Shown: positions 1,810 to 33,822 of the stretch, in pieces
Layout of the letters: every line of letters starts with the position of its first letter
Position numbering within the stretch: position 1 is the first letter of the stretch
IMG/VR virus record: IMGVR_UViG_3300015607_003363
Location: 32,001 to 96,000 of that record
Strand: one strand, 5' to 3'
From: a virus
Lineage: Duplodnaviria > Caudoviricetes
DNA length: 64,000 bases
Translations under genes and position numbers: made by a program
The notes under the pieces: generated by a model
The model's database searches: none
The model's input: the letters and a program-made list of their open reading frames with translations, nothing else
Told to the model about the DNA's origin: nothing

Positions 1810-2203
1810 ATTCGATCACTCCATGACTAAAAAACAACAGACCGAATTTATTTATTGTATATATCGAATCGACTTGGAATAAGAACTCGAAGCATGGTTG
1901 TCTGTTCAGCCTCTTTGGTGCTTCGAGCCTCTTGGTAATTAGACTGCCGTCAATATAGAACAGAACTTCAATTCTATTGCGATAAGCCATAGAAACACTT
2001 ATTGGCTGTTTATTACTATCCAGTACATGTTGATTCCTATTGACATAGCAGTCATGAAATCGATATGTTTCAGCATAGTAACTGAAAATGCATTCAGCTA
2101 CCGCGCCATAAGGTTGTAAGATGACATCCTGATTGTGGGCGATGTCTATAATTGAACGATCTAAACCATCTTCGTCCGTAACTGATTGAATGTCTGCGAA
2201 CAT
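1793..2203 (-). CDS. hypothetical protein
   Basis: 136 aa ORF overlapping both neighbours. Confidence 0.55.
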   Translation of the reverse strand: MFADIQSVTDEDGLDRSIIDIAHNQDVILQPYGAVAECIFSYYAETYRFHDCYVNRNQHVLDSNKQPISVSMAYRNRIEVLFYIDGSLITKRLEAPKRLNRQPCFEFLFQVDSIYTINKFGLLFFSHGVIEYASTR

Positions 2204-5063: not shown

Positions 5064-5199
5064 ATCTATCTGATACTATATTATTGTATGCATCGACTGA
5101 TTTGATTGCCTGTGGTAGCACTGGAGAATTAAACCAAGACTCGACGGTCTTAGTCTCGTTTGTCGCCAAATCAGTTATAGGAGTATCTTTATCAAGGCA
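4867..5199 (-). other. split intein N-terminal half (IntN, 110 aa)
   Basis: K/CLDKDTPI (block A), DTGVQEVFEV, VTLQHKF (TxxH block B), then a stop codon. Confidence 0.88.
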
Positions 5200-6855: not shown

Positions 6856-7259
6856 CAGAGTTTATAATTAATAGCCGCTTGCTCAGCGACACTATGACAG
6901 ACTTCTACAATACTATTGTCAGGCTTTTCAATCTTTAAATTAGGGACTCTGGTCCTTAAATCATTGACTTCCTGTGCATAAGTCTTTGGATCGACTTTAT
7001 ACTTGCCATCGACTTTTTCAAATAGATCGACAATGTATTTGACATTGCACTTTATGACTAAATCTTTGGGGACAGGCTGAAGTATGCCGATAGCATATTT
7101 CAGAGCCACTAGAATGGCTTTCTGATAAGTAGAAAGCATAGTAGGAAAGCCAACAGCGAAATTGTCTTTGCCGTCTATTTCTCCGGCGATACCGCAGGCA
7201 AATGTTACGGCATTTGCCTCATTCTTCATAGACTTATAAGCAATGGTCAAAACGGTCAT
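6816..7259 (-). CDS. RNase H-like fold protein, apparently catalytically degenerate
   Basis: STYQKAILVALKYAI...LVIKCNVKYIV resembles RNase HI TNNxAELxA...IxxDSxYV but lacks the acidic residues. Confidence 0.45.
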   Translation of the reverse strand: MTVLTIAYKSMKNEANAVTFACGIAGEIDGKDNFAVGFPTMLSTYQKAILVALKYAIGILQPVPKDLVIKCNVKYIVDLFEKVDGKYKVDPKTYAQEVNDLRTRVPNLKIEKPDNSIVEVCHSVAEQAAINYKLCWFGYAPCLALKT

Positions 7260-7280
7260 GGTAGCCTCCGATTATAATTA

Positions 7281-8678
7281 TTACATTTTCACTCTAGACG
7301 ACTCATCCATAATAGTATTGAGCATAAATCCGCCTCGGCTCTCACTGAGAAATCTGTCAAAACTCAATGACCAAGGAAGAGGGTCGGTGCGAGATATACC
7401 AAGTAGCCAGCAGACCAATGAACCACCAGCAGAACCACGCGCGTTATGGATATAACCGCGACGATAGCTCTCTTGCGTCAAGTCTTCCGTGATGAGAAAG
7501 TAGCTGGAAAAGCCTTTATCTATAATTCGTTTTAGCTCTATACCAGCCTGCTGAAGATGGGTAACTTCTCTACCGTCGATGACGTATTTTCGTTCATCCT
7601 TCAATAGATTCCGGTCTTTCAGAGCCTGTGTAACAAGCCTGATCAGTCGTGCATCAGAGTCTTCACCGACATAGGGTGTTTTGGGAGCATCATCGACTTT
7701 GATATGTTCGCATTTATCTCTGACTTCCAAGGTATTATCGCAAGCTTCCTCAAAGAGCCTGTCGTCTATTCCCTTTGAGTAGCCATTGTTCTTGAATCTT
7801 TCCCATAGCTCTGCTCTGGTCTTAAAATATTGTTCCGAACTATTAACGTGGAACAGGTTCTCCGTGTCCCACACTGGTACATCCTGATCGATAGCCATCA
7901 TAATCATCTGCAGTTCTGAGTCATCGCGTGTCAAATAGTGGGCATCGTTGGTTATCAGTGGTTTGATCTTTAAATGGTCAGCCATAGCAACAAGCTGCCG
8001 GAATACCAAATCATCACCTTCAATGCCCGGCATCTGTAACTCGACGTAAAAGTCTTCTCCAAATGCGGCTTTAAATTTCTTCAGCCAGTCGATGGCCCCT
8101 CGTTTGTCAGGGCTAGTAAGCCGTGGTTTTTCCTTTTGATCAGTCAGTCGTAATTCGTGTGGGACTGGCCCATTTAGACAGCCGGAAGTGATAATTAGAC
8201 CTTCTTTATGCTTACATAGAAGGTCGAACCATACTTTATTGCGATAGTAATAACCATACTTGAATGAGTCGGTATATAGCCTCATGAGATTGTGATAGCC
8301 GGTTTTGTTTTTGGCGATGACTGTCAGGTGTCTGTCGCGTCGATATCGGCTATAGGTGACTGGGTCGGTTTCTCTTAGGTCATTGAGTTTCCCGCCGTTA
8401 GCGGCAAATTCCTTTCGTTCTGGCTCGTAATCGTTGAAATATATCTCACAAGCATAAATTGCTTTCAACTTGTGTTTTTTGCATTGTTCATATAAATCAG
8501 GCCAAGAACCTAGATTGCCATGTTCAGAAAGAGCTACCGCGCTCCATTTTCGATCAACGCACGCCTTTGCATATTGTTCTGGAGTGGCTACGCCATCGAG
8601 CGTGGAAAAAATAGAGTGGCTATGTAAATGGGTAAAATCAGTATTACCAGAATAATCAGCGGAGTTCACAATGGCCAT
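7281..8678 (-). CDS. dnaE: DNA polymerase III alpha, N-terminal part (PHP domain + GS motif); ORF extendable to 8717
   Basis: FTHLHSHSIFSTLDG, SEHGN, CEIY, RHL, SGCLNG, TNDAHY, RGSAGGSLV, FDRFLSESR. Confidence 0.93.
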   Translation of the reverse strand: MAIVNSADYSGNTDFTHLHSHSIFSTLDGVATPEQYAKACVDRKWSAVALSEHGNLGSWPDLYEQCKKHKLKAIYACEIYFNDYEPERKEFAANGGKLNDLRETDPVTYSRYRRDRHLTVIAKNKTGYHNLMRLYTDSFKYGYYYRNKVWFDLLCKHKEGLIITSGCLNGPVPHELRLTDQKEKPRLTSPDKRGAIDWLKKFKAAFGEDFYVELQMPGIEGDDLVFRQLVAMADHLKIKPLITNDAHYLTRDDSELQMIMMAIDQDVPVWDTENLFHVNSSEQYFKTRAELWERFKNNGYSKGIDDRLFEEACDNTLEVRDKCEHIKVDDAPKTPYVGEDSDARLIRLVTQALKDRNLLKDERKYVIDGREVTHLQQAGIELKRIIDKGFSSYFLITEDLTQESYRRGYIHNARGSAGGSLVCWLLGISRTDPLPWSLSFDRFLSESRGGFMLNTIMDESSRVKM

Positions 8679-10500
8679 ACGAAAAACTAGCCTCCAAGTC
8701 ATAAAAGACTTCATCAATGTCCACCATAATCGATACGATTATAGCAAAGTCGAATATGTAAATTCTAGCGCTCATATTACGATAATTTGCAAAACCCATG
8801 GACCATTTCGGCAAATGCCGAGAGCACATCTTTCTGGTCAAGGATGCAGTAAATGCACACAATCAGAAAATTGGCGATCTGGCAAAAGCACACTAGATCG
8901 TTTCATTCAACGTGCTGTATCTATACATGGCGATCGATACTCCTATTATAATTCTAATTATAAAGGAAGTAATCAAAAAATCACTGTTACCTGTAAAATC
9001 CATGGTGATTTCTCTGTCAAAGCAAATGCTCATCTGAATGGCAATGGGTGTCCAAAATGCTCTAATAATAAATTGAAAACAAATGCCCAATTTATATCAG
9101 AATCACAAGCTAAACACGGTTTTAAATACGATTATAGCTTAGTGCAATATCTTTCATCTACCACTCCAGTTTTGATCATTTGCCCGTCACATGGTAAATT
9201 CAAACAACGACCAGTTAATCATATTGCTGGTCAAGGATGTAAGAAATGTGGAGTTGATCGATCTGCAAGCATTATAACTGGTTCATGTGATGATTTCATA
9301 GCCAAATCTATTAAAGTACATGGTAATTTATATGATTATACAGATGTCGAATATGTCAGGGCAACCATCCCAGTCAAAATAAAATGTAGAAAGCATGGCG
9401 TTTTTTTACAAAGACCACGTGATCACGTTAATAGTAGTAACGGTTGTCCTAAATGTAGTAATAATCAAACTAAAACCACTGGGGAATTTATTACTGAGGC
9501 AAATCTTCGTTGGAGTGGTCGATATATTTATGATCACACAGACTATAAAAACAGCAAGACGAATGTCACAATAACTTGTAGAAAACACGGTGATTTTAAT
9601 ATTGCGGCTGGTTATCATTTAGCCAGAGGCGGATGCCCGACGTGCTCTCTATCATCTGACCAATATGATCTTAGTGAATTTATTAAATCTGCTAAACCAT
9701 GCTCAATTATACTCAATGATCGCACAACAATAAAACCGTTTGAACTAGATATCTACATTCCTGATCATAAATTGGCTATAGAGTTGAATGGAAATTATTG
9801 GCATTCATACGAGTCACCGGAAACGCACGAACAACGCATGAGACACAGTTTAAAATGCGACAAATGTTCGAGTATCGGGATTAAATTATTACAATTTACA
9901 GACGCAGAATGGTCTAATAAAAAAGAGATAGTAAAATCTATGATATTAAACAACTTACAGTTATCATCTAAAATTCATGCAAGAAAATGTGCCGTCGATG
10001 ATGAGCCGCCCAATCAACAGTCATTTTTTAATACAAATCACCTTTACGGTCACAGACCGGGATCGGTATCTATTAATTTAAATTATAAAGACGAAACGGT
10101 CGCAGCAATCAATTTTATCGATTATAAAGATGGTCGTTGGGAAATCTGCCGTTTCGCTACTAAATTGAACCATTGTGTTGTTGGTGGCCTAAGTAGATTA
10201 TTACAGGCATTTATTAAAATCCATAAGCCAAAAACTATTATGACCTATGCTGACAGAAGATTTTCATCTGGAATAGGTTATATGTCCTGCGGATTCAAAT
10301 TAATTAAAATCACTAAACCGAATTATTGTTATCTAGATTGTAGAATGAATGTACTTTCTCGCCAGAAATGTCAAAAACACAAGTTGCCCAAATTACTACC
10401 TGTCTGCGATCCTGACTTATCAGAATCGCAGAATATGTTTAACAATGGGTATCGTAGGCTATGGGATGCTGGGCATTTCAAATTCATATTGAATATCTAA
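8671..10500 (+). mobile_element. free-standing putative homing endonuclease with five CxxHG...GCxxC repeats, Vsr-like nuclease and GNAT-like C-terminus
   Basis: Repeated YDYS...ICxxHGxF...HLxGxGCxxC; ELDIYIPDHKLAIELNGNYWH; EICRFA...YADRRFS...RLWDAG; AT-rich and opposite in strand to its neighbours. Confidence 0.8.
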
Positions 10501-18671: not shown

Positions 18672-19889
18672 TTATATTTCGGTTCTACTCAATCCTGATG
18701 AGTAGCATAATTTCCTGATGAGGTGCAGCGATGATTTTACGGTGTTCGCATTGCATCCGAGGAAGTCGCTGATTTTGTTAAGGTGTGGCTTTTCGTTCTC
18801 TCCATATCTTGCTTGGAATTTCTCCCATGCACTTCCTTCGTTATGGAAGATTTCGAAGATAGCTAGTGCCTGTGGTGTCAGCTGTCCCTTGATGAAGTCT
18901 ATTGCTTCGTTCAGTTCGATGGAGTGTGGATCGAGCACACTGCCATTGGAGTTGAAGAGGATAGAATCTGAGTTGGCAGAGTCTGGATCATTGGAGATTG
19001 TCGTTATTTTGACTACCTCCGATTTCTTGACTACTGCGTTTACTATGGGCAGGTCAGGATCGACGGTAATAGTCAGGTATTTGTCGTCGATGTTGGTGAT
19101 GACTCCGTGTGCTTCATAGCCTAGTCGCAACGATTTTAATTCCTCGACAATTTTGTATGGCGTGGTGTTCTTTATATTGTGGATTATTCTGATTGTCTTT
19201 TCGTCTTTGATGACGGAGACATTGTGGTTTTGCTTGGCCATGGCGTATTCGATATGGCTGGCTAAGGCGACATCGGCTGTGGCTGTGTCGATTGGGTATT
19301 CGATTTCTGTACGAGTTATCTTGCTTTCTTTCAGCGTCTGTCGGATGTAGTTCTTGATGACTTTCGTTATGAATTTGGCCATCCGCAGGCGATCACTCAT
19401 GATAGTCTGTGATTTTTTGACGGCTTTGTTGTTTGATGGTGTGGCTATGAACGGTGATGAGCATAGCTTTGGATCGGCTTTGATCTTTGATATTGGGACG
19501 TATTTGTTCTTGTATTTGGTATGCTGGCATTGTGGACAGACCAGCAGTAGTCTCTGGTATTTCTTGCCATCTGATGCTTTACTGTTGCAGTGGCCACATT
19601 TAATGGAGTACGTTGTATGGTACATCAAATAGCACAGGCTTTTTGTCAGTGCGATTTGAAATTCTCCAAACGCCTTATCAGGGTCTGCGTATTCGCCGCC
19701 AATGGTCGATCTGAGTTGGTGTTTAAATCCTTCTCTGATGCTTTCGAGTTCAGGGGCTGAACTCCATTCGATTATTGCGTCTTCTAGCTTCCTACGCTGT
19801 TCTGATGTAAGGTTTACGAGAGTTATATTGAATAAGGCCCCTCGTAGGTATAATTTTGGTAGTTGATCAACCTTCGTGGTTACGGTCAT
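18672..19889 (-). CDS. sigma-factor-like protein with Zn-ribbon insertion
   Basis: C-terminal region-4-like HTH (LTPQALAIF...KISDFLGCNANTVKSSLHLIRK); FITKVIKNYIR resembles region 2; CGHC/CPQC. Confidence 0.5.
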   Translation of the reverse strand: MTVTTKVDQLPKLYLRGALFNITLVNLTSEQRRKLEDAIIEWSSAPELESIREGFKHQLRSTIGGEYADPDKAFGEFQIALTKSLCYLMYHTTYSIKCGHCNSKASDGKKYQRLLLVCPQCQHTKYKNKYVPISKIKADPKLCSSPFIATPSNNKAVKKSQTIMSDRLRMAKFITKVIKNYIRQTLKESKITRTEIEYPIDTATADVALASHIEYAMAKQNHNVSVIKDEKTIRIIHNIKNTTPYKIVEELKSLRLGYEAHGVITNIDDKYLTITVDPDLPIVNAVVKKSEVVKITTISNDPDSANSDSILFNSNGSVLDPHSIELNEAIDFIKGQLTPQALAIFEIFHNEGSAWEKFQARYGENEKPHLNKISDFLGCNANTVKSSLHLIRKLCYSSGLSRTEI

Positions 19890-20620
19890 TGTCTACTCCG
19901 TTGTGCATGGTGAGGGAAGTTAGTATGGCTAAGTCCAAGGGCAATTATTGCGATTCGGAGAAGCTGGAAGCAACGTGGTATGATTACGCCATTGCTTTAC
20001 AATATCCTCAGCTAGAATCCTATCGCAAATCAGGGTTGATATGGTCCAGACCGAAGACAGATGTCCGGTCGGTGCAGAAGAATGGAACGATAATCCATGA
20101 TCCGTATGTCAATGATGGCATTGACTATATCGTGTATGATGGAAAAACGTTTCGCTCTTTTTCGTGTATTACGATCGACAAACTGATTAATTTCTGCAAT
20201 TCTGGCAAAAGTATAGCAATATCGGAGTTGCCGAATAATACTAAGTATGCTGGCTTTCGTCGTGAAGTACCACTTAATCATTCTTGGACAGAATTGGCCA
20301 ATCAGGTCTATTCTATCTGTTCTGGTATAGCTAAAAAGTTTGCAAACATTAATGATCCGAAGTATGATGATATAGTGTCCACTACTAATCTGGCGATCAT
20401 TACCAAACTTAAGAATAAGAAACTCAAGTTCACTCCCGGACTTGCCCCGGTCTTCAGTTTGATGACTATGGCTATCCATCGTGAAACTTTCACAATATTC
20501 AATAGTGACAAAAGACAAGACCGACTGATTGCGACCGCCAAGATCAAGACCAATCAGACTATCGTTCGGTCATTGTCACGAAATAGATCAGCGAGAAGGG
20601 CGTTAGTCCCGATGATGTGA
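19856..20620 (+). CDS. T4 gp55-like late sigma factor (likely start 19925)
   Basis: MAKSKGNYCDSEKL; ICSGIAKKF...DDIVS...FTPG...VFSLMTMAIHR resembles the gp55 region-2 pattern. Confidence 0.55.
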   Translation: MVVDQPSWLRSLSTPLCMVREVSMAKSKGNYCDSEKLEATWYDYAIALQYPQLESYRKSGLIWSRPKTDVRSVQKNGTIIHDPYVNDGIDYIVYDGKTFRSFSCITIDKLINFCNSGKSIAISELPNNTKYAGFRREVPLNHSWTELANQVYSICSGIAKKFANINDPKYDDIVSTTNLAIITKLKNKKLKFTPGLAPVFSLMTMAIHRETFTIFNSDKRQDRLIATAKIKTNQTIVRSLSRNRSARRALVPMM

Positions 20621-20667
20621 TTATTTTATCACATACAAGGCACCTTGTCAAGATTATCTAGTTTAAT

Positions 20668-21693
20668 ATGGGTCAAATCATCATAAAACCGGCGATCAAC
20701 AGACAACACAGCCAGCAAGCTAGGCGAATTGTCAATGTGAAATCGCCGACGATCACTAGGAAACGAATGCCGCCGACCCAAGTAGCGTCGGCGGCAGATC
20801 GTTTACGCGATTTCGTCAAACCGACAATTATAATCAAGCCACAGCCAAAGCAGCAGGATATAAAAAACAATGGGATTATGATCGATCGGTCGCCACGATC
20901 CATCAGGCCATCACGGCCATCAGTGCCAGTCAACAAGCGCGGCCCTGTGATCAAACGCATCACTAGTGAAGTATCAGAAAAAGACGTTCAGGCGATTGTA
21001 AGATTAAAAGATACCTGCAGAAATAGAATTCTGGTGATAATGGGTAATGGTCCTTCGCTGGCCGAAGTAGATACGTCAAAGCTGGTCGGACTTGAGTATG
21101 TTGACACACTTATAGTCAATAAGCCAGATGAGAGATGCTGGCCGACGAACTATTGGGTCTTTTTTGATGCTTCTCAATATCAGCGCAACAAGGACAAATG
21201 GGAATCCTATAATGGCACTATCTTTACGAGCAATGCTATAAAAGCGGAAAAACCGAAATCAATTAAATTGAAAAATGTTCCTACCGGTGGTTTTCAGCGT
21301 GATCTGTCGAAAGGCATTCATATAGGGCGATCTTCAGTATATGCCAGCATTCAAATAGGTATCTGGCTTGGTTATCAAAGAATATACATCCTTGGGTGTG
21401 ACATGTCTGATGTCGCCGGGAAAGTGCATTATTATGGTGTCAATCCTGATGTAAATCCAGAAGAGCGTAAACGTCGATTTGATGGGGAGGCGAAATTTTA
21501 TTCTGATGCTGTTAAATCATTGTCTGAATCAGAGAGAAACAATATCATTTTCTGCTCGTCCTATCTGAAATATCAATTTGTGAATAAGTATCAAAAGATC
21601 GATCATAAGTTCGCCATCGAATTCATTACGCATGATTCGATTAAGATACGATCGTTACATGAAGCCAGGCAGATAGTGGAGAAGATGCAGTGA
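20668..21693 (+). CDS. MAF/DUF115-like (sialyltransferase-related) protein with basic N-terminal extension
   Basis: ILVIMGNGPSL, SSVYASIQIGIWLGYQRIYILGCD, HYY. Confidence 0.7.
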   Translation: MGQIIIKPAINRQHSQQARRIVNVKSPTITRKRMPPTQVASAADRLRDFVKPTIIIKPQPKQQDIKNNGIMIDRSPRSIRPSRPSVPVNKRGPVIKRITSEVSEKDVQAIVRLKDTCRNRILVIMGNGPSLAEVDTSKLVGLEYVDTLIVNKPDERCWPTNYWVFFDASQYQRNKDKWESYNGTIFTSNAIKAEKPKSIKLKNVPTGGFQRDLSKGIHIGRSSVYASIQIGIWLGYQRIYILGCDMSDVAGKVHYYGVNPDVNPEERKRRFDGEAKFYSDAVKSLSESERNNIIFCSSYLKYQFVNKYQKIDHKFAIEFITHDSIKIRSLHEARQIVEKMQ

Positions 21694-22091
21694 AAATCTA
21701 CACAGCTAGCAAGTTAGCTAATGCCGAAGCAGTCAATGCCTTTAACGGTCTTTTGAAGCAGGCCGGTTTTGAAGTCACTTATGAATGGGCTACTCATGGT
21801 TATATCGACAATTCTGATTCTGAACTGAAGAGGAAAGTCGCCCAGAATGAAATGGAGGGAGTGGCGAAAGCCGATTATCTGGTTGTGCTTCACCCCGGTG
21901 GTTTCGGAACCCATATTGAGATAGGTGTTGCTTTAGCGATGAATATTCCTATTATTATGATTGGTTTCGATAAGACTCAACCAACTCCTTCGTTTTATTA
22001 TTTGGATAGTATTACAATGTTTGATGGTATCACAGAAAGTATAGACTTTCTGTTAGCGTATAAGGACCGACAATGCAAATTGACATCATGA
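21690..22091 (+). CDS. nucleoside 2-deoxyribosyltransferase / dNMP N-glycosidase family protein
   Basis: KIYTAS...EMEGVAKADYLVVL...GTHIEIGVALA (Tyr and catalytic Glu of the NDT/Rcl fold). Confidence 0.8.
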   Translation: MKIYTASKLANAEAVNAFNGLLKQAGFEVTYEWATHGYIDNSDSELKRKVAQNEMEGVAKADYLVVLHPGGFGTHIEIGVALAMNIPIIMIGFDKTQPTPSFYYLDSITMFDGITESIDFLLAYKDRQCKLTS

Positions 22092-22714
22092 ATGATACTG
22101 ACATCAGTATCATCACTCGGTTTTTAAATGATGACAGAATTGATACGGTCGCATGTTCTCCGGGCCTGTCTGGTAGTTTGATGGCTTTGAAACGCAAGCT
22201 TGCAGCTAAATTCAAGATTATAGTTCACACCGATTGGGATAATGGTACCTCCAACGGGATAGACAAGTTTATAGGATTTTCTGCTGATGATCTGAATGCC
22301 GATGGTTTTGAAATTCACACCAAGATTTCCAATGACACGATTCAAAAGAACATCGATAGTATCAATGCGGCTTATGATTTTATTGTAGAACAAATCAATC
22401 CGGAGGCTTCGCTTTGTCTGGCGTTTCGACATGATAATAATCTGATTAATAGTGACTTGCTGCGTAAACTGCCTAGGCCGGAAGAATACAGATTCGGCAT
22501 TGAGCATAAGCCTCCTACAGTATCGTTTAGCTATCGGACTTATGGTTCTGTTATTGAGAAATTGAAGAATATTATCGGGCCAGAGTATTGTATTAAGATT
22601 TGTGGAAATATTGATTCTAAAATCGCCGTATCAACTGTAAACTCCATAGAAGGTAATATTAAGTGTATTTTGAGCGCGAGACAGTTCACAACGTATCTCA
22701 AAGACAAGAGGTGA
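22073..22714 (+). CDS. divergent DeoC (deoxyribose-phosphate aldolase)-like TIM-barrel protein
   Basis: TVACSP, IIVHTDWDNG...K, ADGFEI, IKICGNI parallel DeoC AVCV.P, TVxxFPxG...K, GADEID, VKASGGI; the Schiff-base KTSTG motif is not recognisable. Confidence 0.4.
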   Translation: MQIDIMNDTDISIITRFLNDDRIDTVACSPGLSGSLMALKRKLAAKFKIIVHTDWDNGTSNGIDKFIGFSADDLNADGFEIHTKISNDTIQKNIDSINAAYDFIVEQINPEASLCLAFRHDNNLINSDLLRKLPRPEEYRFGIEHKPPTVSFSYRTYGSVIEKLKNIIGPEYCIKICGNIDSKIAVSTVNSIEGNIKCILSARQFTTYLKDKR

Positions 22715-22718
22715 CACC

Positions 22719-22868
22719 ATGTCGAATAAGACAACTACACCAAGAATCAGATGCCTCATAAAGAATATTAATCGTCTTCACATGGCATCCGAGGATTTGA
22801 AAGCTAGGTCGCTTATCCGGTCTATTCTCAATAAGAGCAGAAGGCCATCTAAGAAATCTGCGAAATAG
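22719..22868 (+). CDS. small basic protein (49 aa)
   Basis: Below the ORF-track cutoff; GAGGTG RBS; MSNKTTTPRIRCLIK...SKKSAK fills the operon gap. Confidence 0.5.
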   Translation: MSNKTTTPRIRCLIKNINRLHMASEDLKARSLIRSILNKSRRPSKKSAK

Positions 22869-22899
22869 GCCACTACCACATAGCCCGGAGAATGTTTCC

Positions 22900-24051
22900 A
22901 TGAAGCAAGGTAAGTTCAATGTTCTGTTTGATTCAGCTTGGGGTAGTAGTGGTAAAGGTGCCGCTGCCGCTAGGCTAGGATCTATTTTTGGGATTGACGC
23001 AGCGTCTTCCAACAATTTCCCAAATGCCGGGCATACTGTCGTAAAAGACGGCGAGAAGTATGTGTTTAAAGTTCTTCCATCGCCAGCCGCCCTATTGAAA
23101 TCGGCTAGGAAAGAAATCAAATTGGTGATCGGACCAACTTCTGGTTTCTTCCTTGATCAATTATTTAAAGAAATCAAGCAGGTATCAAAAGATGGTACTG
23201 GTAATGATGTCAGCCTGATTGTTCACAGTAGAGCGTCTATCGTTTCTGACCGACATACGGAAATGGAGTCGCCTAATGGCGACATGTCCACGCTTCATAT
23301 TTCATCGACTATGAGTGGTAGCGGTGCCGCTGCTGCTGAGAAGATGATGCGAAAGAAATCCGCTGTCATTGTTGCCAGTCTGAGAGACGGCGCAAAGACA
23401 ACGATCTTGGAGCCTATTGACTTTTATTCTTATATTAGAAGTATGATTATAGAAAACCAGAAAATATGGCTTCATGAAGTATCGCAGGGCTGGGCGTTGT
23501 CTCTGAATTGCGGAACTCACTATCCGACATGCACATTCAGAGACTGTACACCACAACAGGCATATGCTGACATGTGCATTACGCCAGATATGATTGGCGA
23601 TGTCTACATGAATATCAGGTCGTTTCCTATTCGAGTGGGAAATAACTATGATGGCCAGAATATAGTTGGATATTCTGGTGATTTTCTCCATGATCAGAAG
23701 GAAATGACGTGGGAGGAAGTCGGCCATGGTGCGGAAATGCCACCAGATTATATAGCGAAGTTGGCCGAAAATGAGAGGACGACTGTGACGAAAAAGATTA
23801 GGCGCGTAGCCACTCAATCGTGGAAGCTAGTGGCGAATAGTGCAAAACTTTCGGGCGCGACTAAATTGATTTTGAATTTCCCTCAATATATCCATTTCTC
23901 GGCACTGAGTGTCAGAGGAGGTATTTCTGACTTTAAGAAAATGCATCATAAAATTCATGAATATGTTGATAAATTACAGACTATTACCAATCTGCCGGTG
24001 GTCATGATCGGTACTGGTGCCGACCATGACGATTTTGTGTGGCTGGTGTAA
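22900..24051 (+). CDS. purZ: N6-succino-2-amino-dAMP synthase (PurZ-type adenylosuccinate synthetase homologue)
   Basis: WGSSGKG (Ser where PurA has Asp), PNAGHT, STMSG, RDCTP..ADM, PIRVG, DQKEMTWE, TTVTKKIRR, LNFPQY (NF instead of PurA TKLD). Confidence 0.85.
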   Translation: MKQGKFNVLFDSAWGSSGKGAAAARLGSIFGIDAASSNNFPNAGHTVVKDGEKYVFKVLPSPAALLKSARKEIKLVIGPTSGFFLDQLFKEIKQVSKDGTGNDVSLIVHSRASIVSDRHTEMESPNGDMSTLHISSTMSGSGAAAAEKMMRKKSAVIVASLRDGAKTTILEPIDFYSYIRSMIIENQKIWLHEVSQGWALSLNCGTHYPTCTFRDCTPQQAYADMCITPDMIGDVYMNIRSFPIRVGNNYDGQNIVGYSGDFLHDQKEMTWEEVGHGAEMPPDYIAKLAENERTTVTKKIRRVATQSWKLVANSAKLSGATKLILNFPQYIHFSALSVRGGISDFKKMHHKIHEYVDKLQTITNLPVVMIGTGADHDDFVWLV

Positions 24052-25717
24052 ATATAGTATAACAACAGTTACAAAGAAGGTGCGTGTAGTGGCAGAAGCT
24101 AAGCGTGATATTGCTTTGTATGTTGGATTTGAAAATGATCCGATAATTATTGATTTTGTCAGTGGTATGACACGTCGTGCATTAGGCGATAAGTATAAGA
24201 AATCACACCGTGCCATAGAGTCTTATATTAGAAGAAGAAGAGTTAATGATGTTGCTGATGTAGTACAGTTACATGATAAAGAATGGTTGACTGGTAAGTT
24301 GTCAGATGGGTGGACTTTAAATCAGATAGCCGAGTCATTAAAAGTTCATAGGGAACATGTTAGAAAGGCTATCAAATCTCATCAAATTGATATTTATAAA
24401 GTGTTTCAGATGAGAGCCAGTAAGATATCAGGCAGGACATTATCATATAGCAGTGTCAAGGAATTATATGATAGTAAAAAGTCAACTATTGATATAGCTA
24501 GATATTTCGGTTTTTCTGGTGACAGTGTTATCCGTGATTTTATGAGGAAGAATGGTATAATTATTAGAAAGAATGGTGAGCACCAAATAAAACATGACAA
24601 TCCAAAACAATTATTAGCTCAATTGTCTGATCGATCTGTCATGCATAGACTGTATGTTGAGCAAGAGTTGTCTTCGACTGATATTGCTGATCGGCTTGGC
24701 TGTAATGGTGTGTTGGTGCAACGATGGTTGCGCAGGCATAAATTTAAGATCAGACACCATTCTGACTATTGGGCTAGGCGTAAGATCGGTGAATTACATC
24801 AATCATTCATAAACTTGTTAAATAATTATTCTGTTAAGCATCAGACGTGTTTCGTATATTCTGGGCGTTATAATGGGAAGAATAGGGTATTTGAAATCGA
24901 TGAATACCTGCCTGATCTGAAAGTTTTCATAGAAGTTAATGGCGATCATTGGCATGGTATTTCTAGAAGACACTGGAAATATCAAAGAGTTAGAAACAAA
25001 TTATGGTCTGATTTGATTAAATATTTATGCGTTACACGAGACTATCCAGATCACAGATTTATATACGTTACAGACAATAACGTAACAGATGCATTCGTTT
25101 CGAGGCTTGCTGGAACTGCGAAATCTGAATATGCCAGTATTGATAGGCAGAATTTTAATATAGACCAATGCTCGTATGCCGATACTGCTCAATTTTTGAT
25201 TGACAATCACTATTTAGGTCCTACTAAAGGTAGAAGATATTATAGATTAATGGTCGGTGGTAGCACGGCGGCTATTGCCGTTGTTGCTTCCCCGACTAGA
25301 GCAGAGATAAAATTGAGTACCGGCCAGGAATGTCTTGAAATAACGCGATTGGCATCTTCAGATATTGGGCAAAATGGTCTGAGTTACTTTTTGGCAAGAG
25401 TGCTTCGTAACGAGGCGCGGATTAATGATGCTGCTGGTATTGTGTCATTTGCCGACCAGAGTCCATTGTACAAACAACAGCATTGGGGGACTATATATAG
25501 AGCGTGTAATTTTAAATTGATTTCAAGAACCGGATGGAATTATCGGTATTATAATTGTGATACTGATGAATTGATTCATAAGAAGACTATTTATAATCGT
25601 GCTGTTAAATTGGATATGACTGAGTCAGAGTTTGTTAAAATTAATAGCCTCCACAAAATTCCTGAATGGCCTAAATTAAAATATGAGTATCTATTTGATC
25701 GATGTGGTCCGCATTAA
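24017..25717 (+). mobile_element. HTH repeats + PD-(D/E)xK/Vsr-like nuclease + Mom-like GNAT fusion (likely start ~24089)
   Basis: Several HTH-like segments; EIDEYLPDLKVFIEVNGDHWHG; NHYLG...LEITRLA...SYFLAR...IVSFAD...HWGTIYRACNF; AT-rich. Confidence 0.7.
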
Positions 25718-25775
25718 TCGGCTGGTCGATAGTATTATACTAGTGTAGGATTGCACTACACTTAGGAGATAGCCG

Positions 25776-26369
25776 ATGTCTGCCGAGATCGTTAATCAGT
25801 ATGATGAGAAGTTGACTGCACTTGGCCTGACACCTGACAAGGTCGTTTTCTTTTTGAATAATGATCTTGTCAAGGTGCCATGCACTGTACATGGGCTTGG
25901 TAAGAATGGATGCTTTTCTGTTCTCTTTGAGGAAGGAAGCGAATTGCAGGAAGTGCACTCTTCGCGAATCGTCTTCGATGCCTCTGCCATATATGTAAAG
26001 CCAAAGGTGGTCAAGGAGGCACAAGAGCCGAAGGCCAAGCATGCCCCTGTCAAGGTGGTTTGCCAGTTTAGCATCGATGATTTCGTTTTGGCTTTTCCTA
26101 AGGCTCGGTTGTATAGCCGAGTTGCTGAGAAATTCGATCACGAAGGCTTCAGTGTTTTGTCGCATGTGGCCATTCTCGACGATAATACCAAGGCCAATTT
26201 CAATTCGTACAACGGCATTATCTATGGTAAGCTTAGTGCCGATGAACATACCAGACTTACCAACGGCGAATGGATTAAATTGACCTCGTCAATTAAGGAT
26301 CTTGCCAAGTTAGAGAACAAGCTCGTTGAGGGGCAATATGTCAGACATGGTGAAAAGTCAAAATCCTGA
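25776..26369 (+). CDS. hypothetical protein
   Basis: 197 aa ORF with AGGAG RBS. Confidence 0.6.
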   Translation: MSAEIVNQYDEKLTALGLTPDKVVFFLNNDLVKVPCTVHGLGKNGCFSVLFEEGSELQEVHSSRIVFDASAIYVKPKVVKEAQEPKAKHAPVKVVCQFSIDDFVLAFPKARLYSRVAEKFDHEGFSVLSHVAILDDNTKANFNSYNGIIYGKLSADEHTRLTNGEWIKLTSSIKDLAKLENKLVEGQYVRHGEKSKS

Positions 26370-26613
26370 GCCGATTATAAAGGCTTCTCTGGATTTCATG
26401 ACTAGACTGAATGTGATTTCCAATAAGGAATTAAGGAAATCACTTCAGTCTGAGTTCGTTAAGATATTAGATATGGCATTGGCTAACTTCTCACAATATA
26501 TAGAAATTATACAACGAGCCGATGATCTTATGGCGGATTTGTCATTAGAATCGACTAAGACTGCATTTGATATAGAGTGCCAAGTGCGAGAAATCGAGAG
26601 TGACAGTAAATAA
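26326..26613 (+). CDS. hypothetical coiled-coil protein
   Basis: Operonic ORF. Confidence 0.5.
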   Translation: MRGNMSDMVKSQNPEPIIKASLDFMTRLNVISNKELRKSLQSEFVKILDMALANFSQYIEIIQRADDLMADLSLESTKTAFDIECQVREIESDSK

Positions 26614-26634: not shown

Positions 26635-27705
26635 ATGGATTATGCAAAGTACAAGGCCATTCAGGCCGGTGGTGCTACAGATCGTTTCAATCTGATGAAA
26701 GCAACACTCTGCGAATCTGGACGGGTTAGCACAATCAAGAATAATAAAGTGGTTGTGTTTGGTGGGCATGGTTTCGTTGGAAAGAACCTTCTTAATTACC
26801 TATCCGGAAGATTTTATTTATCCGGAAGATATCGGGTTTTCGCTCCATCTAGAATTGAGTGCGACTGTTTTTCCTTGGATGAGTGTGTCGAATATATTTC
26901 AACGATCCAGCCCGGTTATGTCGTCAATTTAGCTGCTTTTGTCGGCGGGATTGGTTTAAATAAAGCTTACCCGTTCACTATGGGTATGACCAACGCCAGT
27001 ATTTGTTTGAATGTTTTGAATGCTATTATGCAACAGAGTCATGGTAGTCCAAAGCTGATTCAAGTCGGTACTGTGTGCATGTATCCTTGTGTGCCGACGA
27101 CTATTCCCTTCAAGGAAGAAGAAATCTGGAATGGAATTCCGGAGATCACCAATGCTCCTTATGGACTGGCGAAGAAGTTCGTCGGGTATCTTGCCAAATG
27201 TGCTAACATGGAACACGGATTAAATGTAGTCAATTTGATTCCAACTAATATGTATGGTGAGCATGATGACTTCAGTGATAACGCAAGCCATGTTATTCCA
27301 GCAATGATAAAGAAAATCTATCTGGCCAATCGGGACAAGACCGAGCTTGTCTTATGGGGTGATGGTTCGCCGACTAGGGAATTCCTTTTTGTCGATGATT
27401 TTTGCCATGCGATTCTGGCGGCAATTGAGACTGATGATGCTGTGGCTAATTCTGGCGAGTTTATCAATATTGGAAGTGGATATGAAGTGCGTATGAACGA
27501 TCTGGTAAAAATGATTATTGATGAATTTGGCTATGATGATATGGTTGTGCAATGGGATAAGTCAAAGCCTAATGGCCAGCCAAGAAGAGCCATCGATACG
27601 AGTCGGGCTAAGGAGCTATTGAATTTTCAGGCCCGGACGGAATTTAAAGCTGGATTAAATCAGACTATCAACTGGTTTAAGCACAATATAGCCCCTTTGC
27701 TTTAA
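26635..27705 (+). CDS. fcl: GDP-L-fucose synthase
   Basis: GGHGFVG, LAAFVGGI, GTVCMYP, YGLAK, PTNMYG, SHVIPAMI, WGDGSPTREF, KPNGQPRR. Confidence 0.92.
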   Translation: MDYAKYKAIQAGGATDRFNLMKATLCESGRVSTIKNNKVVVFGGHGFVGKNLLNYLSGRFYLSGRYRVFAPSRIECDCFSLDECVEYISTIQPGYVVNLAAFVGGIGLNKAYPFTMGMTNASICLNVLNAIMQQSHGSPKLIQVGTVCMYPCVPTTIPFKEEEIWNGIPEITNAPYGLAKKFVGYLAKCANMEHGLNVVNLIPTNMYGEHDDFSDNASHVIPAMIKKIYLANRDKTELVLWGDGSPTREFLFVDDFCHAILAAIETDDAVANSGEFINIGSGYEVRMNDLVKMIIDEFGYDDMVVQWDKSKPNGQPRRAIDTSRAKELLNFQARTEFKAGLNQTINWFKHNIAPLL

Positions 27706-27756
27706 TGTTAATTCGAATGTTAATTTAAAATTACGATTAACATTCAAAGGTGATAG

Positions 27757-28545
27757 ATGCACACACCGCTTTTTCGATCGCTAGCATTCAAGAATAGATC
27801 ATTCTGGTCTGTGTTTGCTATTCGAATGCTTTCTCCTATGAGTCTTCCTGTCGGGTGTCGTGATTTGACATCTGTTATCTATGATTCCTCGAAGCAATTA
27901 TCTCCGGCGTATTTTAATCAGAATGCCGACCAGATCAATTATGATAAAATAGTCCGGTATGCACTAGATGTATCCAAGACTTTACTTGTTGATTTTTTGG
28001 ATGGCGAATCGTTGAGTTACTATGAATACTTTGAGATCAATGAGAGCCTGATTGAATTTTTTGTGAAGATTCATATTGCCAATGCTAATGTATGGGACAA
28101 TGAAGATCCGTGTCGCCAGTATACTGGCACCGGTGATCTGAGTCATATTCCTAAATGCAAACAGGGAATTGATATAGCTAATCAGAGACGAAATGATCTG
28201 GTCGAAAAATGTGATGATGTATTTTGTGCGTCAATTGCCACTTATGGGCTTCCGATAGATCGAAATGCCCGTCTGGCATCTGAAGGCCTTGGATCGCTCT
28301 TAGATCGTATGAGCATAAATTCATTAAAGTTGTATCATACGACACTCTTAACACACGAAAAACAAGGTGATATGAGAGACAAGTTAATAGGGAAAATCGG
28401 TGCGATTATAAATCAAAATATGATGCTTGCCACTCAATGCGATAATATGATCTATGATATGCTACATGGCAACTTGACATATATCAAGTTCAAGCAATAT
28501 AAGCTGTATAATTCGGCAGATACTAATTCACATTATCAGCGATAG
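27757..28545 (+). CDS. DUF4254-like protein
   Basis: HIANANVWDNED...IDIANQRRNDLVE...SEGLGSLLDRMSINSLKLYH...KQYKLYN. Confidence 0.7.
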   Translation: MHTPLFRSLAFKNRSFWSVFAIRMLSPMSLPVGCRDLTSVIYDSSKQLSPAYFNQNADQINYDKIVRYALDVSKTLLVDFLDGESLSYYEYFEINESLIEFFVKIHIANANVWDNEDPCRQYTGTGDLSHIPKCKQGIDIANQRRNDLVEKCDDVFCASIATYGLPIDRNARLASEGLGSLLDRMSINSLKLYHTTLLTHEKQGDMRDKLIGKIGAIINQNMMLATQCDNMIYDMLHGNLTYIKFKQYKLYNSADTNSHYQR

Positions 28546-28547
28546 TA

Positions 28548-29462
28548 TTGTCTCATTTTCTACGGAGACAGAATGTGAAACTGGCATTTATTCAGGTGGC
28601 TTCGTGGGGTGACTGCTGTAATTCGACGATGATGTTCCGCCCGTTGCTGAACAAATACGTTGGTGCTCAGCTGCATGTTTTCACATCTATTCCATATCAG
28701 TCGGCTTTTCTCAATAATCCGCTTATTACGGCTATTCATGCTTCGCCTGCTGCTGGTAAGCATGAAGCATTTAGCTTATACGATACTCTACCTGATCAAG
28801 TTCGTAAAATGGGCATATTTGACAAGATCTATTGCCCGGCTCCGATTTTGATGGGAGGTCGTCGTAATAGCCTTAGACATCCAGAAGTAGGAGAGAATCT
28901 ATGGTGCTCATTCTGGAGAGCCTTGGAGGAAGATGATGTGCCATATGAGATTCCGTTGTTGGCCGAGATCACGCTGACTGTTATGGAGCAGGCCTCAGCT
29001 AAATACTTTCTTAGTCAGATGCAGAAGCCAAAGGCTGGTAAAAAGAGAGTGTTAATGGAATGCTATGCCGAAAGCGGTCAGACATATTGGAATGAGCAGT
29101 GGATGGATCAGGTCGCCAGACTATTATTAGATCAGGGTCATCAGGTTATCTTGAGCAATAAAAGCTCCACTAAGGCTATCAGTGCCTTAGTCAAAGCAGG
29201 GGCGATCTTGGTGACTCTACCACTTCGTGAGTGCATTGAGATCTTTAATCACTCTGATATGTTTATTAGTATTAGTAGTGGATTCTGCAATGCATGTCGG
29301 TCAACTGCGGCTACTAAATCTGATGGTATATGGCTTGAGGCTGTTAATAGCCCGACAGTATCTAGTCGGACTCTGGTGAGAAAGGGTGCGACCGGAGTCA
29401 ACGAATTCTATTATGAAAACGACTTAAAGGGCTTTCTTAGGCTAGTCAGGAAACATGTCTAA
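28548..29462 (+). CDS. GT9 (heptosyltransferase-like) glycosyltransferase
   Basis: QVASWGDCCNST, FLNNPLI, SDMFISISSG. Confidence 0.6.
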   Translation: MSHFLRRQNVKLAFIQVASWGDCCNSTMMFRPLLNKYVGAQLHVFTSIPYQSAFLNNPLITAIHASPAAGKHEAFSLYDTLPDQVRKMGIFDKIYCPAPILMGGRRNSLRHPEVGENLWCSFWRALEEDDVPYEIPLLAEITLTVMEQASAKYFLSQMQKPKAGKKRVLMECYAESGQTYWNEQWMDQVARLLLDQGHQVILSNKSSTKAISALVKAGAILVTLPLRECIEIFNHSDMFISISSGFCNACRSTAATKSDGIWLEAVNSPTVSSRTLVRKGATGVNEFYYENDLKGFLRLVRKHV

Positions 29463-31101: not shown

Positions 31102-31578
31102 TCACGAGCCTGAACTCCCAAATCCATTTAACCCTCTTGTACTAGGAGGTAGTTCATCGACTTCGACACATGGAAAATTATATGTTTTAGAAATTATTAG
31201 TTGTGCTAATCTTTGTCCGTGTTTTATGATAACGGGAAATGAATTTGAATTATGGACTTGAATTAATAATTCTGCGCGGTACTCATCTATTATCCCTTCA
31301 ATTACTCGCAATCTGTATTTTTTCTCAGTGCTGCTTCTATGTACTATTCTACCCCAATAGCCAGCGGGGAACGCTGCGCAAATACCTGTATGCAATATAA
31401 CGCGGTTATCTGGGAAAATAGACAAACCACCTTCGAGTTCCTCTGATTTTGATAAGACTATTGGTAAGTCGATACCAGCGTCGCCGTCGTAGGCGCGTTT
31501 TATCAGGCCCAGTTTTTTAGCCGATCTACCATACTCATCGTCTGTGTATTTGATAAGTATGCTGTTGTTGATATCCAT
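31102..31578 (-). CDS. dut: trimeric dUTPase
   Basis: AGIDL, RSS, GIIDEYR, QRLAQL, RGLNGFGSSG. Confidence 0.93.
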   Translation of the reverse strand: MDINNSILIKYTDDEYGRSAKKLGLIKRAYDGDAGIDLPIVLSKSEELEGGLSIFPDNRVILHTGICAAFPAGYWGRIVHRSSTEKKYRLRVIEGIIDEYRAELLIQVHNSNSFPVIIKHGQRLAQLIISKTYNFPCVEVDELPPSTRGLNGFGSSGS

Positions 31579-32534: not shown

Positions 32535-33077
32535 ATGGGTGGTGAGAAATCAGAAAAATTAATTGATCTTTTGACTAGGTTTCTCGGTGATAGCCTGATG
32601 GACGGGGCTACATTAAAATCAGACGAGAAATCTACTGTCATTATGATTCCTAGACGCACAGAGAATGCGTCATGGAATATGGCTTTAGGAATGTTTGAAG
32701 AGTCGAGTCTGGTCACTATCGTTAGCACTGCAGTAGAGGTCGTCAGAGATAGATTAAAAGACGCTAGAGACTTAGTGTCATATATCAATGGTTCTTCATT
32801 TATGACTTCTTGGGTTATAGACGAAGATGAATTGACTATCAATGCTAACAGTTATTATGTTGTACCATCAAATAATTTTTCTGGTTTGCCTCTAGTCATA
32901 GACGATCATACCAAGCAAGTTGATCAGTGGTTGCCAGCATTGCATAGATTGAATAGTACTAATCATCATCCTAAACGAATATTTATGGCTAGTTTAAAAC
33001 AGTATTATTCAAGAACCGGTGTTGATTTGAGCATTGAGGACAAGGAGGGGGATGATGAAGACACGCAGACAACTTGA
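32535..33077 (+). CDS. hypothetical protein
   Basis: 180 aa ORF. Confidence 0.55.
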   Translation: MGGEKSEKLIDLLTRFLGDSLMDGATLKSDEKSTVIMIPRRTENASWNMALGMFEESSLVTIVSTAVEVVRDRLKDARDLVSYINGSSFMTSWVIDEDELTINANSYYVVPSNNFSGLPLVIDDHTKQVDQWLPALHRLNSTNHHPKRIFMASLKQYYSRTGVDLSIEDKEGDDEDTQTT

Positions 33078-33822
33078 TATTGTCATTCCTGCCAGAATGA
33101 GTTCGACAAGACTGCCTAATAAGATAATAATGCCTCTGGGCAATATGCCGTTGATTTTGAGAACGTATCAATCTGCCTGTCAGGTTAAGAGCGAGTTGAA
33201 GGAGCATCAAATTGAAGCGAATATTATCGTTGCTGTAGAATCAGACAAAACCAAGGAAGCCATTCTGAAACATGATAGCGATGTCAATGTAGTGATTTGT
33301 CCAGATGCTAACAGTGGCACAGAGCGTGCTATGCAGGCCTGTACATCCAATTTCCTGCTGGTCTGGCAGGCTGATTGGCCTTTGATCAATAGAAGTGATC
33401 TGGTCGATATGATCGTGAATTCGCATGGTGATATCGCTAATATTTGGACTATGGCCATCAGGGTCAGGAACACGACTCCTATAGCTAATAATAAGAACCT
33501 TGTTAAAGTGGTTGTGTCTGATAGTGGTCGAGCGATTTATTTTAGCAGATCGCCTGTGCCATACAATTCTAGTGAGTTATTAATTCATTCTGGAATCTAT
33601 TTGATGCACAATGTTGAAGACATTAAAACATTGGATGTCGTCAAATTGGATCAGTTTGCCAAATTAGAGGATCTGGAGCAGTTAAAATATTTGAGCTGTG
33701 GTATAACTATAAATTGTCGAGTGTATGACCGTGGGATTTACCATGGAGTCGACACAAGGCCTGAATATGAATATTATTCGCAGATTGTCGATAAAATAGA
33801 AGGTATTATTGAGCATGATTAG
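33034..33822 (+). CDS. kdsB: KdsB-like CMP-Kdo / acylneuraminate cytidylyltransferase
   Basis: VIPARMSSTRLPNK, SGTER, VKVV, AIYFSRSPVP, HSGIY, LEQL, GVDT. Confidence 0.82.
   Translation: MRTRRGMMKTRRQLDIVIPARMSSTRLPNKIIMPLGNMPLILRTYQSACQVKSELKEHQIEANIIVAVESDKTKEAILKHDSDVNVVICPDANSGTERAMQACTSNFLLVWQADWPLINRSDLVDMIVNSHGDIANIWTMAIRVRNTTPIANNKNLVKVVVSDSGRAIYFSRSPVPYNSSELLIHSGIYLMHNVEDIKTLDVVKLDQFAKLEDLEQLKYLSCGITINCRVYDRGIYHGVDTRPEYEYYSQIVDKIEGIIEHD

Follow-up and report, generated by a model that had tools for sequence, protein, structure and literature searches.

Can a large phage replicated by a family C polymerase build 2-aminoadenine (Z) into its DNA, and with which helper enzymes would it do so? 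This question is raised by a purZ locus in a stretch of 64,000 nucleotides (hereafter the window) comprising bases 32001-96000 of the linear IMG/VR viral contig IMGVR_UViG_3300015607_003363. The contig measures 107,909 bp, and its completeness of about 30% (CheckV) implies a genome size of roughly 350 kb. Our analysis suggests that Z-DNA is probably made by large phages too, along a route that is in part undescribed. Conserved linkage shows that purZ travels as a trio with an enzyme of the nucleoside deoxyribosyltransferase (NDT) superfamily and with a barrel protein shaped like deoxyribose-phosphate aldolase (DERA). The combined explanation, which sees in this locus a functioning module for Z precursors in a large phage with DnaE replication and a contractile tail, is considered reasonably probable. 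The trio is encoded as follows:

21690-22091, plus strand: NDT-superfamily enzyme, 133 aa (PF05014, 2.5e-8)
22073-22714, plus strand: DERA-shaped (beta/alpha)8 barrel, 213 aa (AlphaFold2 fold and structure searches)
22900-24051, plus strand: purZ, putative dSMP synthetase of the large-phage clade, 383 aa (PF00709, 5.6e-27; phrog_1211, 8.7e-49)

An earlier note on this DNA had read the 383-aa homologue of adenylosuccinate synthetase PurA as a PurZ from three motifs. Both the open reading frame (ORF) and the motifs are present: GSSGKG occupies residues 15-20, TTVTKKIRR residues 294-302 and NFPQY residues 326-330, all three being invariant or nearly so among 14 diverse clade members. As PurZ hallmarks, they align with GSTGKG, TTVTKKVRR and NFCNY of phiVC8 PurZ, as against GDEGKG, TTGRRRR and TKLD in E. 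coli PurA. In the P-loop, Ser16 takes the place of the catalytic Asp13 of PurA, and LNFPQY in place of TKLD makes an ATP-type nucleotide pocket. The family phrog_1211 is annotated as '2-aminooxy adenylosuccinate synthetase'. In a PDB search, the nearest solved structure was phiVC8 PurZ (6FM1/6FKO, 3e-32), followed by archaeal short PurA (5K7X/2D7U, 4.5e-26) and, in third place, by S-2L PurZ (7ODX, 2e-24).

In phiVC8 PurZ, dGMP's 2-amino group is accommodated by F12, S14 and T262, F295 and Y298 stack on the adenine of ATP, and W252, P233 and G256 are among the best metaGPA discriminators between dZ-enriched and canonical contigs (bioRxiv 10.1101/2025.10.22.683976). The corresponding residues of the window protein are W14, S16 and T294 for the first set, F327 and Y330 for the second, and W271, P243 and G275 for the third. 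Residues S16, T294, F327, Y330 and W271 were invariant in the 12-member subclade of the window protein and in 30 other members of the large-phage clade defined below; the columns of F327 and Y330 are occupied by Met and Gln in PurZ0 and by Lys and Val in E. coli PurA. The large-phage clade also possesses an insertion of its own, about 12 residues long, ahead of TTVTK. Judging from these determinants, the window enzyme should use dGMP, aspartate and ATP, and it is very likely a functional PurZ.

A bootstrapped maximum likelihood tree of 54 rows was computed under LG+G4 and rooted on E. coli PurA, leaving out two intein-bearing sequences (L046 and L055), a fragment (L064), near-duplicates and the long-branch L066; a quick tree agreed with it. 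This phylogeny against PurA, PurZ and PurZ0 placed the window protein inside the PurZ radiation and not with PurA. Five rows formed a PurZ0-like group (ultrafast bootstrap/SH-aLRT support 100/77), 11 rows the classic DatZ-adjacent PurZ (95/72) and 37 rows a large-phage clade (94/82), with the window's subclade of 12 rows supported at 100/100. The classic and large-phage groups were joined (48 rows, 99/99), PurZ0 and E. coli PurA falling outside this grouping. On this tree, the window PurZ belongs to a third, large-phage clade, sister to the classic DatZ-linked PurZ, with PurZ0 further out.

Members of this clade were found almost only in uncultured large or jumbo phages of up to 436 kb. No protein in deposited phages was more than 36% identical to the window PurZ, and a collection of 5.8 billion proteins contained a large PurZ family at 43-64% identity, many of whose members sit on contigs of 100-430 kb, plus one protein at 90%. 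Alignment-based scans retrieved 49 IMG/VR loci, including five complete genomes of 363-436 kb with terminal repeats, and further PurZ matches in two myxobacterial chromosomes and three metagenome-assembled genomes (MAGs). A single-protein scan of genome contigs with the window PurZ had given no relative; the alignment-based scan then gave five. The exceptions to the uncultured large-phage distribution are the few copies in myxobacterial chromosomes or MAG contigs and one cultured 168-kb myovirus, Flavobacterium phage MaF61 (PQ858689), which is also placed in the clade.

In the myxobacteria, a Ser-type purZ with a Dut-family gene directly downstream was observed in Chondromyces apiculatus DSM 436 (L018) and on the chromosome of Sorangium sp. 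So ce131 (L019), at about 6001-7880 in each locus. Their closest viral relatives are G021, of IMG/VR class 'provirus', and G023, and these pairs may represent a Z module that resides in a cellular genome, either on a prophage or in domesticated form. The purZ ORF is about 810-820 aa long on two jumbo contigs of 315 kb and 193 kb (L055:8573-11005 and L046:8597-11059). The L055 gene carries a LAGLIDADG intein right behind its NAGHT motif (PF14528, 4.9e-18; PF14890 below the cut-off), which suits a conserved, important gene.

The NDT gene, pointed out earlier as a neighbour of purZ, proved real and consistently linked to it. All eight barrel-encoding loci have an NDT gene upstream and purZ at most about 1.5 kb downstream; they comprise the window, three loci with close barrel relatives (L005, L021, L038) and four with distant ones of about 25% identity (L093, L094, L095, L096). 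The window NDT has orthologues in L094 (8e-22) and L093 (1e-19), whose genes immediately precede the barrel gene and purZ; in L094, the three genes follow each other back to back, without the Maf-like gene that is described below. The L094 PurZ is sister (100/100) to that of MaF61 at the base of the large-phage clade, and the trio therefore spans the breadth of the clade, the NDT-barrel pair being found both at its base and in the subclade of the window. Searches of 50,697 deposited phage genomes with the NDT and the barrel, of either window or L094 type, gave no match. The L094 locus also contains a uracil-DNA glycosylase gene split by a LAGLIDADG intein (4110-5843, precomputed Pfam annotation); uracil-DNA glycosylase is among the domains associated with dZ contigs (bioRxiv 10.1101/2025.10.22.683976).

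In the HMMER alignment of the window NDT to the solved NDT 8QC0, Glu54 falls on the position of the catalytic Asp and Glu77 on that of the nucleophile. Tyr4 lies within a KIYxAS motif (KIYTASKLAN), and both Tyr4 and Glu77 are conserved in the orthologues. The best known point of comparison is DmtZ of the PurZ0 actinophages, which converts dAMP to adenine and deoxyribose 5-phosphate and can move the sugar phosphate onto the Z base; its partner DutZ is a Dut-family dATP/dGTP pyrophosphatase, and the pair acts through the monophosphate, with no DatZ; Z phages are described there as completely substituted (PMC12884076). By analogy, the window NDT is probably a (d)NMP N-glycosidase or a deoxyribose 5-phosphate transferase, in a lineage that is distinct from DmtZ at the sequence level.

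The next gene had been called DeoC-like in the earlier note. A DERA-like fold and the linkage to purZ were confirmed, but neither a sequence link to DeoC nor a Schiff-base lysine was found. The AlphaFold2 model (pLDDT 79.5, pTM 0.81) consists of eight beta-alpha units. DERAs lead the Foldseek list obtained with it (TM 0.63-0.72), and a VIA-align comparison with 48,161 representative chains returned DERAs as the top six matches (Z 14.3-15.4, about 200 residues aligned). Strand beta7 carries a DERA-like K175-x-x-G-N-I, and three lysines are invariant: K65, K175 and, in the loop that follows beta6, K146. Going by the model, the barrel would handle deoxyribose 5-phosphate or a related phosphosugar.

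The family C replicase reported earlier for this purZ phage was confirmed. It is split over three ORFs, recognised by PF02811, PF07733, PF17657, PF14579 and phrog_405; these and the tail sheath gene are located as follows:

7281-8717, minus strand: DnaE piece, PHP and start of the NTPase domain
4867-6855, minus strand: DnaE piece, rest of the NTPase domain and fingers
2203-3414, minus strand: DnaE piece, HHH_6
56702-59545, plus strand: tail sheath, 947 aa (phrog_23, 1.4e-72; PF22671; PF17482)

The split DnaE is shared by the related genomes G003 and G019. G004, a phage from the window's subclade with a complete genome of 160.7 kb, has DnaE as one intact ORF of 1165 aa, and no PolA, PolB or HD was found in that genome; that PurZ occurs in a DnaE-only phage is therefore no artefact of fragmentary sequence but real. 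An ORF of 147 aa without a family match (6816-7259) lies between the first two DnaE pieces, and a 609-aa homing-endonuclease-type gene (8671-10500; phrog_559, 3.8e-132) is found directly upstream of DnaE. The sheath gene bears out the contractile tail. The label 'T4-like' had to be dropped: the nearest cultured sheath relatives are those of Listeria phage LIS04 and Bacillus phages SP-15 and HSE3 (33-39% identity over partial lengths), and cyanomyophage sheaths are 26-27% identical to the window sheath.

A study on S-2L (PMC8065100) describes its PrimPol as non-selective, specificity being brought about by pool editing. A non-selective replicase is therefore compatible with a Z genome. The earlier interpretation, in which a different way of making or selecting dZTP was one option, is supported in part; given the S-2L precedent, DnaE requires no new selection principle. 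A further candidate for pool editing, overlooked in the earlier note, is found about 7 kb from the purZ locus on the opposite strand:

31102-31578, minus strand: trimeric dUTPase-family (Dut) protein, 158 aa (PF00692, 1.6e-18)

Motifs I, II, IV and V of this protein are intact. Motif III reads GIIDE-YRAEL, with a one-residue deletion and a Gly to Ala change, and this alteration lies in the base-selecting hairpin. An RSS motif and a short linker between motifs II and III are common to the window Dut, DutZ and purZ-adjacent Duts. From its sequence, the protein could be an ordinary Dut, or else act on dATP and dGTP as a pyrophosphatase of DutZ type.

The pathway that we propose for these enzymes would start with PurZ condensing dGMP with aspartate to N6-succino-2-amino-dAMP, which host PurB and host kinases would turn into dZTP, as in the established pathway. 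The NDT would act on deoxynucleoside monophosphates (dNMPs), most plausibly on dAMP from host DNA breakdown or from dATP, either splitting off the base or, like DmtZ, transferring deoxyribose 5-phosphate to the Z base. The barrel would dispose of or process deoxyribose 5-phosphate, making dA removal irreversible, and the Dut-family enzyme may supply dAMP and dGMP from the triphosphates. DnaE would not need to tell Z from A: like the S-2L PrimPol, it would incorporate according to pool composition. The roughly 70% of the genome off this contig may additionally encode a DatZ-type enzyme. We consider it fairly likely that the virion DNA contains Z; the chances that the NDT-barrel pair removes or converts dAMP, a role assigned by analogy, are put just short of even. 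A bolder proposal is offered tentatively, and the chances are somewhat against it: the NDT and the lysine-less barrel may constitute an undescribed form of pool editing for Z-DNA at the dNMP level, destroying dAMP or converting it to dZMP, which is old in the clade and lets non-selective family C phages, jumbo phages included, do without DatZ, MazZ and DpoZ.

Several observations weigh against the proposed pathway. The window NDT had no phmmer match (--max) to DmtZ of Archimedes or Preamble even at E = 10. It is devoid of the P-I-D motif, hence of the adenine-reading Asp12 of DmtZ, and has Glu54, not the Asn of DmtZ, at the middle triad position; for these reasons, its substrate is a guess. 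Regarding the barrel, neither the window protein nor its seven homologues had a Pfam match, and the window protein had no PHROGs match; a PDB profile search was empty, and HHalign against E. coli DeoC gave a probability of 0.1%. With no sequence-level family, the resemblance to DERA is therefore one of fold, and other phosphate-binding barrels follow just 1-2 Z units below DERA in VIA-align (next match 13.6). Where DERA has its Schiff-base lysine, strand beta6 (model residues 138-141) carries the invariant Arg140, as judged by strand register and not by residue-level superposition. Because of this replacement the barrel is not a canonical class I aldolase; it may bind rather than cleave, it may use a different lysine, or it may not be an aldolase at all. 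The window Dut is not linked to the trio in relatives; linkage thus lends no support to an assignment as DutZ, and the protein may be an ordinary dUTPase. The root of the PurZ tree rests on one PurA sequence. Finally, since the contig is only about 30% complete, the absence of datZ holds for the sequence in hand and not for the whole genome.

This last point bears on the alternative of a canonical pathway, with a datZ-type HD gene and perhaps mazZ in the missing part of the genome (about 70%) and the NDT-barrel pair as an accessory or salvage add-on. We regard it as unlikely, though deserving serious weight. The earlier note had recognised no datZ or mazZ in the 64 kb, and indeed HD, HD_3, YfbR-like, MazG and DUF550 domains are absent from the window. 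The same Pfam models found nothing in the 107.9-kb contig (about 30% of the genome), nor did phmmer searches of it with real DatZ, MazZ, DUF550-type and Preamble accessory proteins. Likewise, no family A DpoZ was detected in the contig beyond a weak PolA-like ORF below the Pfam cut-off. This ORF of 392 aa (40300-41478, plus strand) matches the C-terminal palm of family A polymerases (1.2e-6) and has counterparts of 390-399 aa in G003 and G019; in this DnaE phage, it may represent a PolA-like protein that is truncated or has an accessory role.

Besides the low completeness, a canonical pathway is favoured by several relatives. In each of the complete jumbo genomes, a YfbR-like HD protein is encoded roughly 10 kb from a family A polymerase of some 950-1000 aa; wherever purZ was located (G008, G011, G013, G017, G030), the HD gene was more than 100 kb away from it, so that the Z genes are dispersed across giant genomes. 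The jumbo HD proteins (L097-L103, from G030, G008, G017, G011, G013, G033 and G012, respectively) read R-Y/F-S-S at DatZ positions 20-22, with Tyr/Phe and Ser at the specificity positions that are W20 and I22 in S-2L DatZ; a combination of Y20 with S/T22 is prevalent in experimentally dZ-enriched contigs (bioRxiv 10.1101/2025.10.22.683976). A complete 118-kb phage from the window's 100/100 subclade (L028/G010) carries purZ, then a MazZ-like ORF and then a YfbR-like HD gene, and the near relative G019, which shares both the split DnaE and synteny, has an HD_3/YfbR-like gene beside its DnaE. However, no homologue of this G019 gene exists in the 108 kb of the window's contig, and a homing-type gene is found at the syntenic spot upstream of the first DnaE piece. 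Moreover, the complete DnaE phage G004 is without any HD; in this genome a DmtZ-like NDT (IYTAGPID) adjoins a Dut gene about 10 kb from purZ. None of the loci examined has the trio plus an adjacent datZ.

Members of the large-phage clade carry at least three different helper sets. The set of L028, the HD variants of the jumbo phages and the intein of L055 are indirect lines suggesting that members of this clade make Z. A complete contig of 41.4 kb with terminal repeats (G005, L023) has a PurZ of the window's 100/100 subclade; no HD, Dut, NDT or DnaE match was found in it, and only a weak PolA match.

It is also conceivable, although rather unlikely, that Z substitution is partial or conditional, because DnaE in a phage without a dATP triphosphohydrolase could not exclude adenine. 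No dATPase was recognised in the 108 kb, and dATP made de novo via ribonucleotide reductase would escape an enzyme acting on monophosphates. On the other hand, the DutZ/DmtZ pair of the PurZ0 phages works via the monophosphate without DatZ, complete substitution having been described for Z phages (PMC12884076), and the window does encode a Dut-family enzyme whose base-selecting hairpin is altered.

Another possibility is that the NDT-barrel pair does not deplete dA. It could exchange bases, turning dAMP and the Z base into dZMP and adenine, or act on another nucleotide, for example towards a further-modified purine. DmtZ has such a transferase activity, the window NDT is without the adenine-reading Asp, and the barrel, being without the Schiff-base lysine of DERA, may, instead of cleaving deoxyribose 5-phosphate, serve to bind a phosphosugar or nucleotide. 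In addition, Mom-like DNA-modification domains adjoin purZ in six phages, among them that of the window:

24017-25717, plus strand: fusion of helix-turn-helix (HTH), nuclease and Mom-like parts, 566 aa as longest ORF (PF25680, 2.6e-14; phrog_1384, 7.9e-19)

Against such an exchange, which we hold to be improbable, no enzyme making free Z base was identified, the DERA fold ranked first in two independent structure searches, and the Mom fusions look mobile, with three paralogues beside unrelated conserved genes. An auxiliary metabolic gene of PurA type, boosting (d)AMP supply in a phage with canonical DNA, is very improbable: large phages often carry purine-synthesis genes and, in the PDB search, the score of archaeal short PurA (4.5e-26) came close to that of PurZ, but Ser replaces the catalytic Asp13, an ATP-type NFxxY replaces the GTP-specifying TKLD, the residues of the dGMP 2-amino pocket are all present and invariant, and the window protein nests within the PurZ radiation.

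The fusion gene itself, described as a nuclease-GNAT neighbour in the earlier note, is present but behaves as a mobile homing-type gene. It encodes three HTH motifs, a nuclease-like middle and a Mom-like C-terminal domain (residues 380-560), the match to PF25680 spanning model positions 2-183 of 202. The C-terminal part also matches the homing-endonuclease phrogs 3339 and 559, and the real start of the protein may be further downstream. The three paralogues on the contig, this fusion included, have different DNA-binding heads and are located beside DnaE (8671-10500), beside purZ (24017-25717) and, past the end of the window, at G000:C1:98780-100183. Homologues adjoin purZ in five other jumbo contigs (L002, L029, L032, L052 and L055), L055 having a fusion-type gene on each side of its purZ in addition to the intein. 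A part as pathway enzyme, for instance in modifying Z, was considered and rejected on account of the three paralogues beside unrelated conserved genes and of the flanks and intein of L055. The fusion is probably a mobile homing-type gene favouring conserved loci, although it may have a DNA-modifying role.

Genes of the plus strand are co-directional from about 19.9 to 29.7 kb of the window. End-to-start overlaps run throughout the three genes upstream of purZ: the NDT gene starts with a GTG that overlaps the stop codon of the 341-aa gene before it, and the NDT and barrel genes overlap by 19 nt. Promoter and terminator scans of positions 19500-26500 gave chance-level numbers (26 promoters found versus 21 +/- 4 expected; 5 terminators versus 4.1 +/- 2.2), and no transcription unit is therefore claimed for the cluster. 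A megablast of 10 kb from the window against phage records gave no match. The gene heading the cluster is the following:

20668-21693, plus strand: Maf/CstII-like (DUF115) transferase, 341 aa (PF01973, 2.2e-4, below the cut-off; phrog_4603, sialyltransferase, 1.6e-8)

The AlphaFold2 fold of its residues 100-341 is nearest to nonulosonic-acid transferases of the Maf (5MU5) and CstII (1RO7) types, a weak match (E about 1e-3, probability 0.99-1.0). This Maf-like gene heads the cluster in seven of the eight loci and is absent from L094. It is most likely part of a phage glycan module, and its membership of the purZ module is doubtful. The barrel was likewise considered as a member of the glycan module, given that it travels with the Maf-like gene, and this was rejected because L094 keeps NDT, barrel and purZ without that gene. 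Other glycan genes observed in the window encode an NAD-dependent epimerase/dehydratase (26635-27705), a CMP-sugar-type cytidylyltransferase (33034-33822) and a double GT2 glycosyltransferase (48518-50449), and a DUF4254 gene lies beside an unassigned 304-aa gene in the 26635-29462 region.

The NDT plus barrel helper set has no counterpart among the 50,697 deposited phage genomes, and all that is published on Z genomes comes from small sipho- and podoviruses with a family A polymerase or PrimPol. Should chemistry confirm Z, giant phages and family C replicases would be added to the range of Z-DNA, the NDT and barrel would be a new enzyme pair for manipulation of the dNMP pool, relevant to enzymatic production of Z-DNA, and there would be more support for repeated recruitment of helpers around a single purZ origin.

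How does this locus compare with known systems? Published Z phages are sipho- and podoviruses (PMC8599892), a survey of NCBI viruses recognises PurZ and PurZ0 only (Nucleic Acids Research 2026, PMC12884076), and full-text literature searches gave no paper in which PurZ is connected to jumbo phages or myoviruses. PurZ and DnaE were found together in one paper, whose subject is the replication origin of E. coli. The window protein resembles the PurZ of phiVC8 (6FM1/6FKO) and S-2L (7ODX) in family, in Ser for Asp13, in the Thr of TTVTK and in the ATP-type Phe/Tyr pair; it is about 33-36% identical to them. The purZ-mazZ-datZ order of the classic Z cluster is kept in L028, within the window's own subclade, whereas no datZ, mazZ or family A DpoZ occurs near the window purZ. 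Classic Z phages are 40-kb sipho- or podoviruses, and the window phage is large and contractile-tailed, with a split family C DnaE. MaF61 has a Ser-type PurZ-like gene with GSSGKG, TTLTKLPRRV and MNFVNY, but its PurZ is about 27% identical to that of the window and the phage has no match to the NDT or barrel of either the window or L094 type.

The PurZ0, DutZ and DmtZ system (Ghobes, Wayne, Archimedes; PMC12884076) is similar in that an NDT enzyme replaces DatZ and a Dut-family protein is phage-encoded, and the likeness extends to the adjacent DmtZ-like (YxAxPID) NDT and Dut of G004. It differs in that PurZ0 has Met/Gln where the window synthetase has F327/Y330, the window Dut is unlinked, and the PurZ0 system is without the DERA-shaped barrel, the constant third partner in the window trio. 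It was also observed that gp53 of Gordonia phage Archimedes (L007:8726-9163), annotated as 'deoxyuridine triphosphatase', is an NDT-type DmtZ orthologue (LIYYAHPID, Tyr6, Asp12), the true Dut-like gene of this phage being gp55.

An NDT enzyme in the Z pathway is not new in principle, being already known both from PMC12884076 and from Yang et al. (bioRxiv 10.1101/2025.10.22.683976). In the latter work, NDT (PF05014) genes were associated with dZ contigs, and one purified enzyme preferred dA as donor. NDT-family genes thus accompany the Z pathway in environmental phages there as well; those NDTs are not co-localised with purZ and co-occur with DatZ and PolA, whereas the window NDT sits in the purZ cluster, coupled to the barrel gene, in a DnaE phage in which no DatZ was found. 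As for DERA/DeoC, it is the best structural match of the 213-aa protein and shares Lys-x-x-Gly-(Gly/Asn)-Ile on beta7, but sequence or profile similarity is lacking and beta6 bears Arg where DERA has its Schiff-base Lys. The pathway logic itself is already known; what appears to be new with respect to the literature is the large-phage PurZ clade, its family C replicase context, this lineage of NDT and the barrel as a constant partner.

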